This document shows, piece by piece, positions 61,560-64,000 of a stretch of 64,000 bases of DNA; within the stretch, counting starts at the first letter, position 1, and each line of letters opens with the position of its first letter. The translations under genes were made by a program, and so were the position numbers. Source of the stretch: Clostridiaceae bacterium (GTDB lineage Bacteria > Bacillota > Clostridia > Christensenellales > CAG-917); contig JAITPR010000048.1 in NCBI GenBank assembly GCA_031289315.1, positions 1,085 to 65,084 of the forward strand, written 5' to 3'. Under the pieces are notes generated by a model that made no database searches, was not told where the DNA came from, and was given only the letters and a program-made list of their open reading frames with translations.

Positions 61560-61588
61560 TTGATTTATACAATTTATCGTGTTACAAT
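61560..61588 (+). promoter_or_regulatory. Candidate promoter for the TIR-domain ORF
   Basis: TTGATT (61560-61565), a 17-nt spacer ending in TGt, then TACAAT (61583-61588), about 90 nt upstream of ATG 61679. Confidence 0.4.
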
Positions 61589-61678
61589 ACTACTTAATAT
61601 TAGATAATTAATACTGTTGCAATACTGTTGCAGATGAAGCTTGCGGTTGGTAAGACGGCAGTACGGAGGATATAAAGT

Positions 61679-64000
61679 ATGATAGGAATTATAATGTGGA
61701 TTGTAGGTGAGTCCGTTCAAGCGGGTCTTGCCACGTGGATGGATCTTGCCGATAACGGAGTAGACCTTGCCGGAGGCTTATTTAAAGCTATAGAAAAACT
61801 AATTAATGAGAAGAAGCTTTCAAAAAAGCTAGTCGCACATTATGAAAAGTTGATAAATGATTGCGGATATGCAAGCGAAGTCAGGGCGTTTTTTGAGGCG
61901 GCGAAAGAGGAGGGCTTTGCCGGGGCTAAGGGACACTTTAAGAATAAGGATTTTGCCAAACAATTGCAGAAGCTGCTATTATCAATACTTGCTTTCACCG
62001 TAAAAAATAAAACGCGCGAAAACTGCGAAAAGAGCGCGGCTTTTAACGAGATTGAAAACGAGGAAGTTAAAGTCGCTATTGTCGGCATAATCGACGATTT
62101 TCGGGAGAAGCTTGTTTCATTGAGATTTAAGATACTGCCGAATGATTCTCAAACCGTTGTAGCGGCAGTGATAAGTGCATTGAGAATGGAATTTCAGAAT
62201 GCCGGTTCAACTCAAGCGATAATCAATGACAGAGCGATGGTGGACACATTTGCAGCTTTTTTAGCCCAAAATCGGGAGGCTATTTTTAGCAAAATCGTCG
62301 AAAAGAAAGATGTGCAGTGGATTATACATAGTTGCCCCAATTGTCATTCTACAGATGTGGACATAACTTTAAATGCGAATAGATTTAGATGCAATGCCTG
62401 CGGGGCGAAAGTTACACGGGCACAAGTCGAAATCACTTTAGAGGATTACCGCAAGCTAGCGGTCGCATCGGAGGGGAACATCGTCGGCGCTATTGAAAAG
62501 AAATTAACAACCGAAGTCGCAAGGTTGGAAAAAAGCGGTAAAACATTAACGGAAGAGGCGAAAGCCGACATTCGCAAAGAAATAACCGCCGCAGCAGAAA
62601 AAGCCGCCTACGATAACGGTTTAGTGCAGTTGGACATTTTCGTGTTAAGCGGCAAGCTGGAAAACGGGCTCAAAAATCTAGATGATAAAATTGGCAAAGG
62701 CATCGTTACTGTCGTGGCGAATTCTGATGCCAACGCCGAGCGTATACTTAATGAAGTTAAGGACGTTAAAAGGTTGTTAACGGACGATAGTAAAGCAGAT
62801 AAGAAAGCCCCCGCCGCTAAAGCTGAAGAGTATAAAGAGGCGGCAATAAAAGAGTTAAAGGACTTAATAAAGTTTCCAAGAAAGGGATTAGATACTGAAG
62901 CCGTAAAGGCGGCGGCAAAAGAAGTTTTGAGGTATAAACCGCTAAATATATTCGCAAGGCTTTACACAATCCTTTTTGGTAATAAGAGTACATTTCAAGA
63001 AGATTTGCTCAAATTACTAAAATCCGATTTCACAAAAGAGGATGTCGAAGACGATATACTATTTATTAAATGCTTATTGGAGGAAGATTATAATATAGAT
63101 TTTCACGCTCCGATAATTGCGTTTGTCGAAAGATACATCATGCCTAAAAGATCGGGGCAAAAGAGTTTAATAACCGATCTTGAAAAACTTGCCGTTGAAT
63201 ATGATAGCGGCATGTATGACGCATATAAACAAAGGGATGTTTTTATCGCATATAGCAGCAAGGATCAAGAGGAAGCGGAGGGGCTAGTTACATATCTAAC
63301 CTCACAAGGTATAAGTTGTTTTATTTCTTGCCGCAATATGAAGCACGGCACGGGGAGCGACGCATTATACTGGGACACAATCAAAACCGCGTTAGACAGA
63401 TGCAAAATCTTTTTATTTATAAATTCTAAAAACAGCCGAAACGTCGCTTGTAACGCATATAGCAAAGAGCTTTCTTTTGTGCTTGAAGCGGATCAAGACG
63501 CATATGCAGCGGCTGTGCCAACAGTCTATCGGAGAAAAAGGAGTTTGTCAGCAAAAGAGATTCCCGACGCTTATAGGAAAGATAGGATAAACTATATTTA
63601 TCAGGCTTATGAAAATAAGGGAATAGACCAAGATGTGAAAAACTTTTTCGACGGATATTCCGATGTTCACACACATAAAGAAATTGAGAAGCGAATTCTC
63701 GAAATAAATAGGTTAGTAGGATTACCGCAGGATGCGCCTATTTCACCTAAATCGGAATCGCCTGTTTTGGCAGAGCCGGCTAAGCCTATTCTGCCAAACA
63801 AAGAGAAGAAGCCGATTGAGCCGGTTACGCCGATTTACGAGAGTGAGCCTGAAAAAGTTCTAAGGGAATACCTCGAAAAGAAGGCGAAGGAAGCCGCAGA
63901 AGCGCAAAAAAGGGACGAAGCCGAAGAGTTGTATAAGAGCATCGTATCGAGTTACAACAGCTTAAAGGTACATATAAAAAATATCGGTGCGGATAACTGC
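61679..64000 (+). CDS. Large multidomain TIR-domain protein (3' end outside the window)
   Basis: Not in the ORF track because no stop is reached. Hand translation from ATG 61679 (GGAGGA at 61665-61670) gives 774 codons with no stop. It contains a zinc ribbon CPNC-x15-CNAC (62333-62401). A TIR-like block DVFIAYSSKDQEEAEGLVTYLTSQGISCFIS...RCKIFLFINSKNS...YSKEL spans about 63236-63670. Confidence 0.8.
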   Translation, partial: MIGIIMWIVGESVQAGLATWMDLADNGVDLAGGLFKAIEKLINEKKLSKKLVAHYEKLINDCGYASEVRAFFEAAKEEGFAGAKGHFKNKDFAKQLQKLLLSILAFTVKNKTRENCEKSAAFNEIENEEVKVAIVGIIDDFREKLVSLRFKILPNDSQTVVAAVISALRMEFQNAGSTQAIINDRAMVDTFAAFLAQNREAIFSKIVEKKDVQWIIHSCPNCHSTDVDITLNANRFRCNACGAKVTRAQVEITLEDYRKLAVASEGNIVGAIEKKLTTEVARLEKSGKTLTEEAKADIRKEITAAAEKAAYDNGLVQLDIFVLSGKLENGLKNLDDKIGKGIVTVVANSDANAERILNEVKDVKRLLTDDSKADKKAPAAKAEEYKEAAIKELKDLIKFPRKGLDTEAVKAAAKEVLRYKPLNIFARLYTILFGNKSTFQEDLLKLLKSDFTKEDVEDDILFIKCLLEEDYNIDFHAPIIAFVERYIMPKRSGQKSLITDLEKLAVEYDSGMYDAYKQRDVFIAYSSKDQEEAEGLVTYLTSQGISCFISCRNMKHGTGSDALYWDTIKTALDRCKIFLFINSKNSRNVACNAYSKELSFVLEADQDAYAAAVPTVYRRKRSLSAKEIPDAYRKDRINYIYQAYENKGIDQDVKNFFDGYSDVHTHKEIEKRILEINRLVGLPQDAPISPKSESPVLAEPAKPILPNKEKKPIEPVTPIYESEPEKVLREYLEKKAKEAAEAQKRDEAEELYKSIVSSYNSLKVHIKNIGADNC

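Follow-up and report, generated by a model that had tools for sequence, protein, structure and literature searches.

The open reading frame at the end of the window, by which we mean the whole 64,000-nucleotide stretch of DNA analysed here, is, judging by its sequence, a real gene for a TIR-domain protein whose putative catalytic glutamate is intact. Profile searches and alignments further place this gene as a divergent member of a large, unstudied paralogous family, not as a one-off island gene. The encoded protein is probably a ligand sensor that responds by cleaving NAD+.

On the forward strand, the frame is stop-free from the ATG at 61679 through 64000, an uninterrupted run of 774 codons that was reported in the first-pass annotation and reappeared on retranslation of the window; at the local base composition, an open run of this length would occur by chance with a probability of about 1e-24. 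The window end cuts the frame, which had been described as an unannotated ORF, but the same product is already in NCBI, named 'TIR domain-containing protein' and entered as partial (917 aa), from a 65.5-kb MAG contig. This public record reaches at least residue 917 (about position 64429), where it runs off the contig end and is partial as well. Exact-protein look-ups of the window protein (P0001) and of MurC yielded neither a longer contig nor a second copy of the locus, and metagenome scans with P0001 and with an alignment of its N-terminal module did not recover the locus. Although the gene is incomplete in the assembly, as a decaying remnant might be, no stop interrupts the 917 codons of the partial record, and a frame of at least this length in which every family-invariant residue is intact speaks against decay, and we reject the pseudogene reading.

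The identification of the domain as a genuine TIR, made originally from motifs, is upheld by both profile and structure. Within residues ~520-660, where the domain had been proposed, Pfam TIR_2 (PF13676) matches aa 521-619 at E 7e-9, its score of 36.6 bits exceeding the curated cut-off of 28, and an AF2 model of the core (pLDDT 81, pTM 0.75) adopts a TIR fold. The top Foldseek hits to this model are all TIR domains, with AbTir, MAL, TLR1, TcpB, SARM1, RUN1 and SPARTA among the matches, and the best of them, 7uxu_A, is the NAD-cleaving AbTir bound to an NAD analogue (target TM-score 0.78, rmsd 2.9). PDB sequence searches gave weak TIR matches only (best E 9e-4). Taking TIR_2 and the model together, the domain occupies 63233..63718 (+; aa 519-680) and comprises beta-A (DVFIAYSS, 63236-63259, starting where it was first annotated), the RNMKHG loop (63332-63349), beta-C (KIFLFINS, 63404-63427), the alpha-C glutamate E597 (codon GAG, 63467-63469), an insertion that comes after alpha-C, and then beta-D (RINYIY, 63584-63601), from which the TIR continues to alpha-E. 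The first-pass annotation was correct in reading KIFLFINS and the glutamate downstream of it as TIR-typical, but the strand is beta-C, not beta-D, and the glutamate lies in alpha-C. Similarly, the stretch to about aa 680 that was assigned to a post-TIR region is in fact the rest of the TIR, from beta-D to alpha-E, resuming after the insertion.

Alignments and the model single out E597 as the candidate catalytic glutamate, in that it is a conserved position: together with R519 and G557, it is invariant in family alignments A1 and A2, and it sits in the model helix 195-215, which corresponds to alpha-C. The KEL of the window protein aligns with the REL of BtpA/TcpB, whose glutamate we take to be the catalytic residue (hhalign probability 29%, using a provisional BtpA sequence); hhalign against a similarly provisional SARM1 TIR sequence aligned beta-A to beta-C only and ended before the glutamate. 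With AbTir, BtpA/TcpB and SARM1, the window TIR has in common the fold (TM up to 0.78), the beta-A motif D-x-F-[IL]-x-x-S and a glutamate at the start of alpha-C. It differs from them in that sequence identity is only 11-18%, the accessory domains are different, the usual BB-loop sequence is replaced in the window family by an RNL(R/K)HG loop, and about 20 aa are inserted between alpha-C and beta-D.

Animal TLR and adaptor TIRs (MAL, TLR1 and MyD88) occur among the structural and sequence matches, as would be expected if the domain were a non-enzymatic, homotypic scaffold by which the variable domains, LRR or DUF6273, are assembled or anchored in, say, an envelope or adhesin complex; and BspA-type LRR proteins, to which many relatives of the window protein belong by their tails, are often surface adhesins. 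We consider a scaffold quite unlikely. Alongside the invariant glutamate, the aligned members keep S526, the RN.xHG loop and the SxxSR motif of the pocket region, all of which would be needless for a pure scaffold, and the top structural match, 7uxu, is a bacterial TIR with an NAD analogue in place.

Ahead of the TIR, the protein consists of four segments, all on the forward strand. The N-terminal module (61679..62323; aa 1-215) is helical, its first helix being moderately hydrophobic, and has no match among known families; ordinary family members are missing it, a word-indexed homolog search with the N-terminal part returned no match, and its AF2 model (pLDDT 40) is uninformative. Its sole homolog found is the protein P0003 (36% identity over ~360 aa), by virtue of which this region is real coding sequence. 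Where P0003 has a full hydrophobic helix, the top Kyte-Doolittle 19-mer of the window module scores 1.42, which is under the TM threshold and is also the maximum for the 917 aa, so that the protein has no TM segment. The zinc ribbon follows (62324..62428), with CPNC at 62333-62344 and CNAC at 62390-62401 exactly as first reported, spaced as CPNC-x15-CNAC; although Pfam zinc-ribbon matches fall below threshold, its four cysteines (C219, C222, C238 and C241) line up with the N-terminal ribbon, which is near-invariant in the family. The third segment is a charged helical or coiled-coil insertion (62429..62869; aa 251-397) that opens with an ITLEDYR motif common to P0003 and takes the place of ~40 aa in ordinary members. 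With 215 extra residues before the ribbon and ~150 aa inserted after it, the window protein thus departs from the family plan. The fourth, a family-specific pre-TIR domain for which AF2 predicts six helices (62870..63223; aa 398-515), lies within the conserved core, the part to which hundreds of relatives align.

Behind the TIR, a Pro-rich linker is present as annotated (63725..63832, +; aa 683-718), and the further domain that was thought to begin after it and to be cut by the window proves to be ~150 aa of helix or coiled coil, whose start lies at 63833..64000 (+) and which the public record extends to about aa 865, followed by a DUF6273-like start at about aa 870, past the window end. In the public record this start reads GSFPQ...PIKWRIL...LFLLSE, and by blastp aa 856-917 match the beginning of the region that Pfam calls DUF6273 in two family members, P0048 (E 2e-7) and P0023. 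Because the C-terminal domain is cut off, with only ~50 aa of the ~170-aa DUF6273 (PF19789) before the contig end and no match reported by Pfam, assignment of this part as a putative sensor leans on a 50-aa stub. DUF6273 is described in the literature as a ligand-binding domain that is diversified in phage receptor-binding proteins and is often a DGR target; neither the window nor loci L001-L079 carry a DGR template/variable-repeat signature.

The family to which this gene belongs was defined by an exhaustive HMMER search, which was needed because word-indexed searches gave almost nothing (with the full protein, itself only; with the core, two matches). Clustered at 50% identity, its representatives number 676 with a threshold of E<=1e-3 and at least 473 with the stricter E<=1e-10; they are distributed over Clostridia and some Bacilli, the carriers being gut and rumen commensals. 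Its plan runs from a Zn ribbon through a helical region to the TIR, sometimes one TM helix, and a variable C-terminus, and its signature consists of the CxxC..CxxC ribbon, a P..D..A.F helical motif, the RN(L/M)xHG loop, SxxSR..CDA..E and a beta-D K(K)PR(V/I)xY. The core HMM matches the window protein over aa 402-681 with 294.7 bits (E 2e-89). TIR_2 was detected in 63 of the 64 members scanned, and the C-termini among 64 members include LRR_5 (in 35) as well as LRR_8, DUF6273, Sel1, TPR, TM2, lectin_C and SBP_bac_3. Gut and rumen Clostridia have up to nine or more copies per genome, with tandem arrays of four. When paralogs from the same genome are compared (110 pairs), identity in the N-terminal part is 61% with full coverage; for the C-terminal part, 34 pairs give no detectable match and 60 give a coverage below 50%. 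In the literature searched, we found no published description of a family with this Zn-ribbon, helical, TIR and variable-tail arrangement. Certain members end in multi-TM or TM2 tails, which resemble effectors or anchors more than sensors and count against reading the tails as sensors.

A single TM helix follows the TIR unit in 48 of 149 representatives, and where such members carry LRRs, these lie beyond the helix (29/29). Counts of K+R in the TM-bearing members, 232 before the helix and 50 after it, indicate an N-in, C-out topology that would leave the TIR in the cytoplasm. This topology bears on whether the protein could be a host-directed, Tcp-like effector that, in the manner of TcpB/BtpA or TcpC, blunts TLR signalling in animal cells. 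The presence of TcpB/BtpA among the fold matches and the gut and rumen habitat of the carriers would suit such a role, but we reject a secreted effector for the lack of any signal peptide or secretion-associated domain in the window protein, and it is also at odds with the cytoplasmic TIR of its TM-bearing relatives. That the gene encodes an effector of this type, or else is the decaying remnant considered above, strikes us as extremely improbable.

As first suggested, the composition of the TIR ORF is atypical: its GC is 0.416 and its GC3 0.42, the lowest among the 22 long ORFs of the window (median 0.59) and below the 0.56-0.62 of neighbouring genes, and the spot G+C counts originally given (20/60 at 63001-63060 and 37/60 at 42421-42480) are exact. 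The low GC of the window gene is in part a family property, since family genes lie below their neighbours in GC3 at 43 of 57 loci; the median difference there is 0.04, and the deficit of the window gene, 0.17, is far above it. The gap of about 760 bp said to follow murC (59567-60919, -) measures 759 bp, is filled with three 51-nt tandem units plus other repeats, and separates murC from the TIR-gene side.

Within this gap, the promoter and 5' leader (61516..61678, +) include the TTGATT-17-TGtTACAAT element at 61560-61588, present as annotated with its upstream TG although a consensus match only, the ribosome-binding site GGAGGA at 61665-61670, 8 nt before the ATG, and two copies of the direct repeat AATACTGTTGCA. 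The same interval is ~89-93% identical to the DNA that precedes the P0003 gene on L077/L078, a likeness that ends within ~9 nt past the ATG. Because the two genes have in common a promoter and leader that are about 90% identical, yet encode proteins that are only 36% identical, the locus looks strain-variable from these sequence comparisons. The leader RNA folds no better than shuffled sequence (z 0.09), an Rfam search of 60800-61800 gave no match, and the promoter 30-mer was not found in viral contigs. Since there are no convincing inverted repeats flanking the promoter, an invertible promoter is unlikely.

The further suggestion that this is a defence locus is not backed by the genes around it. 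Housekeeping genes occupy the 16 kb upstream of the TIR gene within the window, and the matches obtained among the 147 immediate neighbours at 75 related loci are to housekeeping families, generic ATPase cross-hits and isolated true defence genes only, with no enrichment of defence genes either in the window or around the relatives. Nor is any partner gene conserved across the 75 loci, at which the largest neighbour cluster, an AAA ATPase, accounts for nine; this fits a single-protein system. A viral-contig scan with family patterns found no relative, and neither did tblastn of the protein's core against phage and plasmid records. The results show that a TIR domain next to AT-rich DNA is insufficient for calling a defence island.

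The domain order, stated at the outset to be unlike ThsA/ThsB, is indeed so, and it is also unlike that of CBASS, SPARTA, Avs and retron systems. CBASS and Pycsar (TIR-SAVED, TIR-STING and PycTIR) are rejected on the basis that the 917 aa contain no SAVED, STING or cNMP domain, a weak PADLOC SAVED_TIR match being confined to aa 519-558 of the TIR. SPARTA, seen as a TIR fold match only, is rejected for lack of an APAZ or pAgo match; Avs, bNACHT and TIR-NLR (STAND) systems for lack of a P-loop/STAND domain in the 917 aa by Pfam, NCBIfam and PADLOC; and retron TIRs because there is no Rfam match in 60800-61800 and no RT upstream. Thoeris is likewise rejected, there being no ThsA-type effector (SIR2 or TM with SLOG/Macro) upstream or conserved at the 75 related loci.

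If the gene nevertheless belonged to a TIR defence system of a known, multi-gene kind, for instance as a ThsB-like signal generator, its effector would lie downstream, a side of the gene that is beyond the contig. Two further observations could be read in this way: ThsB profiles are the best matches in the PADLOC defence library (E 1e-5, aa 513-588), and the relative P0152 directly follows two patatin-like phospholipase genes. The ThsB matches, however, are confined to the N-terminal half of the TIR, the generic stretch from beta-A to beta-C; the related loci show no conserved partner family; and among the 25 most frequent of 151 neighbour Pfam families there is no SIR2, SLOG, Macro, SAVED or STING, and no RT or cyclase. 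Moreover, while a bacterial TIR_2-type domain is common to both, ThsB proteins are short, stand-alone TIRs, and the window protein is very large (>917 aa) and multidomain, with candidate sensor domains of its own. Membership in such a system is accordingly a reading to which we attach very little probability.

A different possibility is that the family consists of environmental or cell-surface receptors with no part in immunity, whose tails would sense nutrients or molecules of host or neighbouring cells and whose TIR would make an NAD-derived messenger or tune NAD+; the RsgI-type anti-sigma sensors of cellulolytic Clostridia, which also occur as multiple paralogs, would be an analogue. The single TM helices, external LRRs and N-in/C-out topology would be consistent with such receptors, as would the SBP_bac_3, lectin_C, Sel1 and BspA-LRR tails (typical of extracellular binding modules), the housekeeping neighbours and the failure to find relatives on phages or plasmids. 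The window protein, which has no TM helix in its 917 aa, would then have to be a soluble paralog within a partly membrane-spanning family; the genes are not accompanied by a conserved downstream receptor that would read a TIR product, and foreign composition and cargo swapping better suit an accessory conflict gene. To our knowledge, all experimentally studied bacterial TIR enzymes with a catalytic glutamate act in conflict. Enzymes of this type covered in one report (PMC12847820) also speak against a purely environmental role, which we view as unlikely.

The closest functional parallel may be SpbK of the Bacillus subtilis element ICEBs1 (PDB 9phb), like the window protein a stand-alone TIR with a helical domain ahead of it, no partner gene, and its glutamate in alpha-C. 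The logic of activation is likely to be the same, in that a non-TIR domain of SpbK binds the target and clusters the protein, forming the active site between TIRs (PMC12847820). The family profile aligns to the SpbK helices and beta-A with E 0.016, which is weak, and since this similarity is not significant, membership is not claimed. The two proteins also differ in size, context and domains: SpbK has 266-290 aa, resides on a conjugative element and senses a phage portal protein with a 4-helix bundle, whereas the window protein exceeds 917 aa, is encoded on the chromosome next to murC, belongs to a multi-paralog family, and adds a Zn ribbon and long coiled coils as well as a C-terminal domain that is putatively of DUF6273 type.

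We give roughly even chances to the reading that the window gene encodes a stand-alone cytoplasmic TIR sensor-effector, a ligand-clustered putative NADase or signal generator whose most likely role is in conflict or immunity, such as sensing phage or another invader. A conserved signalling unit, made up of the Zn ribbon, the six helices and the catalytic-type TIR, would be joined via a flexible or coiled-coil linker to a variable binding domain, which in the window version would be of DUF6273 type; what this version adds in front is the rare N-terminal module, along with a long coiled coil. At rest, the TIR domains would be held apart; a ligand on the variable domain, and possibly on the N-terminal module as well, would cluster the protein; head-to-tail packing of the TIRs would then build a composite active site using E597; and cleavage of NAD+ would lead either to its depletion and a stop in growth or to an ADP-ribose-derived signal. 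Activation of TIR NADases through clustering by other domains is known for SpbK, TIR-STING, TIR-SAVED, SARM1 and plant TNLs (PMC12847820). Expansion of paralogs that keep the core and swap tails, and a strain-variable locus of foreign composition, fit an immunity role without proving it.

The family as a whole invites comparison with TLRs and plant TIR-NLRs, which likewise pair their TIR with a variable binding domain, LRR or other. Roughly a third of the family members resemble TLRs in being single-pass, with the LRR outside and the TIR inside, and the remaining members are soluble, as are TNLs, though without the NTPase. Relative to TLRs the order is inverted (type II, with an N-terminal TIR and a C-terminal LRR), the LRRs are BspA-type (LRR_5), and there is no NB-ARC or NACHT; the window protein itself, over the 917 aa that can be seen, lacks both a TM helix and an LRR. 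The likeness is one of convergent architecture, and the TIR is the part for which homology is evident. A broader claim, that the family is an undescribed bacterial counterpart of TLR/TNL-type receptors, in which a conserved TIR unit with interchangeable tails would provide a germline-encoded recognition repertoire and the window copy would be a soluble version with a new N-terminal module at a cassette-exchange locus under a conserved promoter, is a tentative one that we hold to be possible but rather doubtful. With respect to cassette exchange, strains would swap the middle 'engine', which is a TIR in the window and an Hsp70/actin-like ATPase in L077.

Catalytic TIR domains are an immunity currency common to bacteria, plants and animals, and the bacterial TIR systems studied to date are mostly small operons of model organisms. 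The window gene points to a family of gut and rumen Clostridia with hundreds of clusters that join one conserved TIR unit to swappable recognition domains, many of its members placing this unit across the membrane with LRRs outside; the receptor logic is the one known from TLRs, arrived at independently. Should the physiological-signalling alternative hold, a catalytic bacterial TIR would, as far as we know, be seen to act outside immunity for the first time. If, on the other hand, these proteins are ligand-triggered NADases, they would constitute a large untapped set of single-protein sensors, of relevance to the phage resistance of gut anaerobes and to biosensor design, and a useful case for the origin of TIR-plus-repeat receptors.

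From ATG 61679 onward, no stop codon interrupts the reading frame before the window ends, and our re-translation agrees with the first-pass annotation in counting 774 codons; given the local base composition, the probability of such an open frame by chance is about 1e-24. That annotation had also placed the ribosome-binding site, the promoter-like match, the CPNC/CNAC cysteines, the DVFIAYSS start and the Pro-rich linker correctly, and its two spot counts of G+C were exact on recount. Its description of the ORF as unannotated does not hold: the public record already contains an identical protein, titled 'MAG: toll/interleukin-1 receptor domain-containing protein, partial [Clostridiaceae bacterium]', which has 917 aa and lies on a 65.5-kb contig at whose end the frame is still open. 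The ORF is, as had been proposed, more AT-rich than the housekeeping genes, having a GC of 0.416 and a GC3 of 0.42 against a GC3 of 0.56-0.62 in neighbouring genes, and this GC3 is the lowest among the 22 long ORFs of the window (median 0.59). That it represents a secreted Tcp-like effector or a gene remnant is highly improbable, there being specific evidence against this reading. Low G+C (0.43-0.45) occurs also in the 1-kb bins 9001-10000, 24001-25000 and 27001-28000, and elsewhere in the window (51960-53660), upstream of a copper-type P-ATPase (54455-56938), a 566-aa ORF combines an N-terminal heavy-metal-associated-like CxxC, acidic low-complexity repeats (DES.DE.. units) and several hydrophobic segments.

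Residues 521-619 of the encoded protein match Pfam TIR_2 (E 7e-9; 36.6 bits, cut-off 28). An AlphaFold model of residues 398-690, for which the input was a family alignment of 21 sequences, reached a pLDDT of 81 and a pTM of 0.75 and comprises six helices and, C-terminal to them, an entire TIR: beta-A (DVFIAY) and alpha-A, beta-B (CFI) and alpha-B, beta-C (KIFLFINS), alpha-C, which bears E597 and is followed by an insertion, and beta-D (RINYIY) with alpha-D and alpha-E. Because of this order of elements, KIFLFINS, at first labelled beta-D, becomes beta-C, and the stretch once thought to follow the TIR is its second half. The TIR assignment itself is upheld by the Pfam score above cut-off and by Foldseek, whose matches in the PDB were almost exclusively TIR domains (AbTir, TIR-1/SARM1, MAL, TLR1, TcpB/BtpA, RUN1, PdTIR, SPARTA), the top target-normalised TM-score being 0.78, at an rmsd of 2.9 A, for 7uxu, an AbTir filament with a bound NAD analogue. 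In sequence, solved TIRs are only weakly similar to it (best 8btn_B, E 9e-4; SpbK, E 0.016). R519, G557 and E597 are invariant across the family alignments, and hhalign profile comparison, at a probability of only 29%, pairs the family KEL, whose glutamate is E597, with the REL of BtpA/TcpB, the glutamate of which we take to be the catalytic one; a comparison with SARM1 ended at beta-C. Our conclusion is that this is a TIR of the catalytic type, and it is probably enzymatically active. Specific evidence argues against a TIR that is purely a scaffold, which we consider quite unlikely.

An exhaustive HMMER search, with representatives taken as 50% identity clusters, recovered 676 clusters at E<=1e-3, of which 473 reach E<=1e-10; with few exceptions the matches cover only residues ~400-690 of the query, and the same block lies at residues ~70-345 of the matched proteins. 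Inspection and domain scans revealed a common plan of zinc ribbon, helical region, TIR, a charged, Pro-rich or coiled-coil linker, and a very variable C-terminus. The N-terminal CxxC..CxxC ribbon is present in 139 of 152 retrieved proteins and the TIR in 63 of the 64 family proteins scanned, and the C-terminus is a BspA-type LRR_5 in 35 of these 64, other C-termini being LRR_8, zinc ribbons, DUF6273, Sel1, TPR, TM2, C-type lectin and SBP_bac_3. Some members carry multiple complete TIR units per chain (P0002, at aa 69-344 and 562-746; P0004, with three). Hydrophobic helices C-terminal to the TIR unit number exactly one in 48 of 149 representatives and several in 21, and are absent from the other 80. 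Because the LRR lies C-terminal to the helix in all 29 single-TM LRR proteins, and because Lys and Arg residues total 232 N-terminal of the helix vs 50 C-terminal of it, the TIR is predicted to be cytoplasmic and the LRR extracellular.

The ribbon of the window protein (C219, C222, C238, C241) aligns to that of the family and is not N-terminal: a 215-aa helical module stands ahead of it and a charged helical insertion of ~150 aa behind it. Among the best 150 of the 676 matches, this front end is common to P0003 only, a 614-aa protein without a TIR that is 36% identical to the window protein over ~360 aa; since these were the best 150, weaker relatives of the module may exist, and the public collections searched yielded no further ones. 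The extreme N-terminus forms a full hydrophobic helix in P0003 and a weaker one in the window protein, in whose 917 aa we found no TM segment. Past the Pro-rich linker come ~150 aa of helix and then a stretch, GSFPQ...PIKWRIL...LFLLSE, resembling the start of the DUF6273 domain of the relatives P0048 and P0023; with 50 residues of it present, Pfam made no DUF6273 call.

Two short contigs that are 99.97% identical to each other, L077 (JGI) and L078 (Logan), carry the gene for P0003. The 171 nt 5' of the ATG of this gene are ~89-93% identical to window 61516-61687, with one 8-nt indel, and the match (L077:1-180, L078:1-133) takes in the promoter match, the direct repeat AATACTGTTGCA and the ribosome-binding site; the promoter/leader 30-mer of the window gene is ATTTATACAATTTATCGTGTTACAATACTA. 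This DNA similarity stops sharply, within ~9 nt after the ATG: between the coding sequences none is detectable, and window 61000-64000 holds no other match. Ten nt past the first gene, L077 encodes (2026-4038; also L078:1979-3376) an Hsp70/actin-like ATPase (N-terminus MKIGIDLGTS...) fused to a long coiled coil and a DUF6273-like domain, a fusion of which we know no description and whose tail type is that of the TIR protein in the window. Parts of like kinds, namely front module, ribbon, coiled coil and DUF6273, thus stand behind the same leader in both places, split over two genes in L077 and with the ATPase in place of the TIR core. Because L077 begins exactly at the end point of the repeat-rich spacer of the window, the two may well represent the same neighbourhood, and we read them as a strain-variable cassette locus, or as a leader that travels with this type of gene. 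Variable cargo behind a conserved promoter therefore supports the accessory half of the earlier proposal of an accessory or defence locus, and does not specifically support defence. The leader yielded no significant RNA structure, no Rfam match and no invertible-promoter repeats.

The spacer separates the TIR gene from its upstream neighbour murC (59567-60919, opposite strand); described beforehand as a repeat-filled gap of ~760 bp, it measures 759 bp and does contain repeats (61123-61339, 61389-61477), including a 51-nt unit in three tandem copies, with the core TGTCACCTTGAGCG, and a 21-nt repeat, CCATGCAACGCGCATAA(A/G)GCG. Four copies of the core lie in the spacer and one at 45104-45117, against 0.26 expected by chance, and a second intergenic region contains, at 45215-45279, a sequence with 78% identity to the 65 nt at 61348-61411. 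These repeats have the look of an element dispersed among the intergenic regions of this genome; Rfam gave no match for it.

Scanning a single genome from each species gave 93 relatives, for which 75 loci were fetched; their copy numbers are lower bounds and their gene calls crude longest-ORF calls. Almost all sources are gut or rumen MAGs of Clostridia (Eubacteriales, Oscillospiraceae, Christensenellaceae, Acutalibacteraceae), with a few from Acholeplasmatales, Anaeroplasma and Erysipelotrichaceae. One member (L067:9416-12166), whose core begins at aa ~193 behind a different N-terminal extension, occurs in the cultured wall-less Mollicute Anaeroplasma bactoclasticum ATCC 27112, which might offer a starting point for experiments. 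Two or more copies are found in 17 of 39 assemblies, with at least 9, 7, 6, 5, 5 and 5 in single ones, and two loci (L039:64-11059, L053:468-15349) hold four-gene head-to-tail arrays whose products (516-1551 aa) have the N-terminal unit in common and differ in their tails. Over 110 pairs of within-genome paralogs, the part from zinc ribbon to TIR is 61% identical at full coverage, and the tails have undetectable similarity in 34 pairs and <50% coverage in 60.

No partner gene is conserved across the 75 loci, the biggest cluster of non-family neighbours occurring in 9, and membership of the window protein in Thoeris or another multi-gene system, against which there is specific evidence, is very improbable. 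PADLOC returned generic ATPase cross-hits and single BrxL and SspH cases for the 147 immediate neighbours; the ABC transporter of the window gives mad3/mad8 cross-hits as relatives' neighbours do, and no other defence-like genes were found in the 16 kb upstream of the TIR gene. The frequent Pfam families among these neighbours are housekeeping ones (ABC transporters, phosphofructokinase, PBPs, GAPDH, PurH), and P0002, the closest relative, adjoins an aromatic amino-acid operon. Such contexts, together with the extracellular-type tails, favour the main rival explanation, that the family serves environmental or surface sensing, which we nevertheless regard as unlikely. The viral contigs scanned with family patterns held no relatives, and tblastn of phage and plasmid records with the core segment of the window protein gave no match. 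GC3 of family genes is below that of their neighbours in 43 of 57 loci (median difference -0.04), and the window gene, at -0.17, lies far past this median.

Two contexts deserve separate mention. P0152 (zinc ribbon, TIR, extra zinc ribbons; L076:7945-11467) lies 8 nt past a pair of adjoining patatin-like phospholipase genes, and six small ORFs lacking annotation come after it, the sole context among those seen that resembles an operon with a lipase effector. Nine loci (L008, L010, L027, L048, L050, L057, L062, L063, L073) share one to four tandem MIT-like AAA ATPases with a zinc-ribbon/Sel1/trypsin-like protease (e.g., L050:15720-20235, L063:11542-16200), joined in some by an FtsK/SpoIIIE-type ATPase; this set possibly forms a module of its own, related to conflict or to sporulation.

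The analysis shows a catalytic-type TIR whose glutamate is invariant; the signalling unit is conserved, the tails are hypervariable, no partner is obligatory and the base composition is foreign. [quoted passage not shown] With moderate confidence, we propose that a ligand would be bound by the DUF6273-type tail, and perhaps also by the N-module, that this binding, helped by coiled coils, would cluster the window protein, and that E597-dependent cleavage of NAD+ would follow, resulting in NAD+ depletion or an ADPR-derived signal. Within this molecular model, we somewhat favour immunity over physiological sensing.

Single-protein TIR sensors of the SpbK type come closest to the window protein in their way of working, and the family as a whole follows an LRR-plus-TIR logic like that of TLRs and TNLs, but the window protein is a member of none of these. 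In the literature we found no description of a family of zinc ribbon, helical region, TIR and variable tail, nor of TIR-TM-BspA-LRR proteins. The TIR call of the window protein is ordinary and already annotated; what is worth attention is the architecture of its family, the expansion of paralogs and the promoter-conserved cassette locus.
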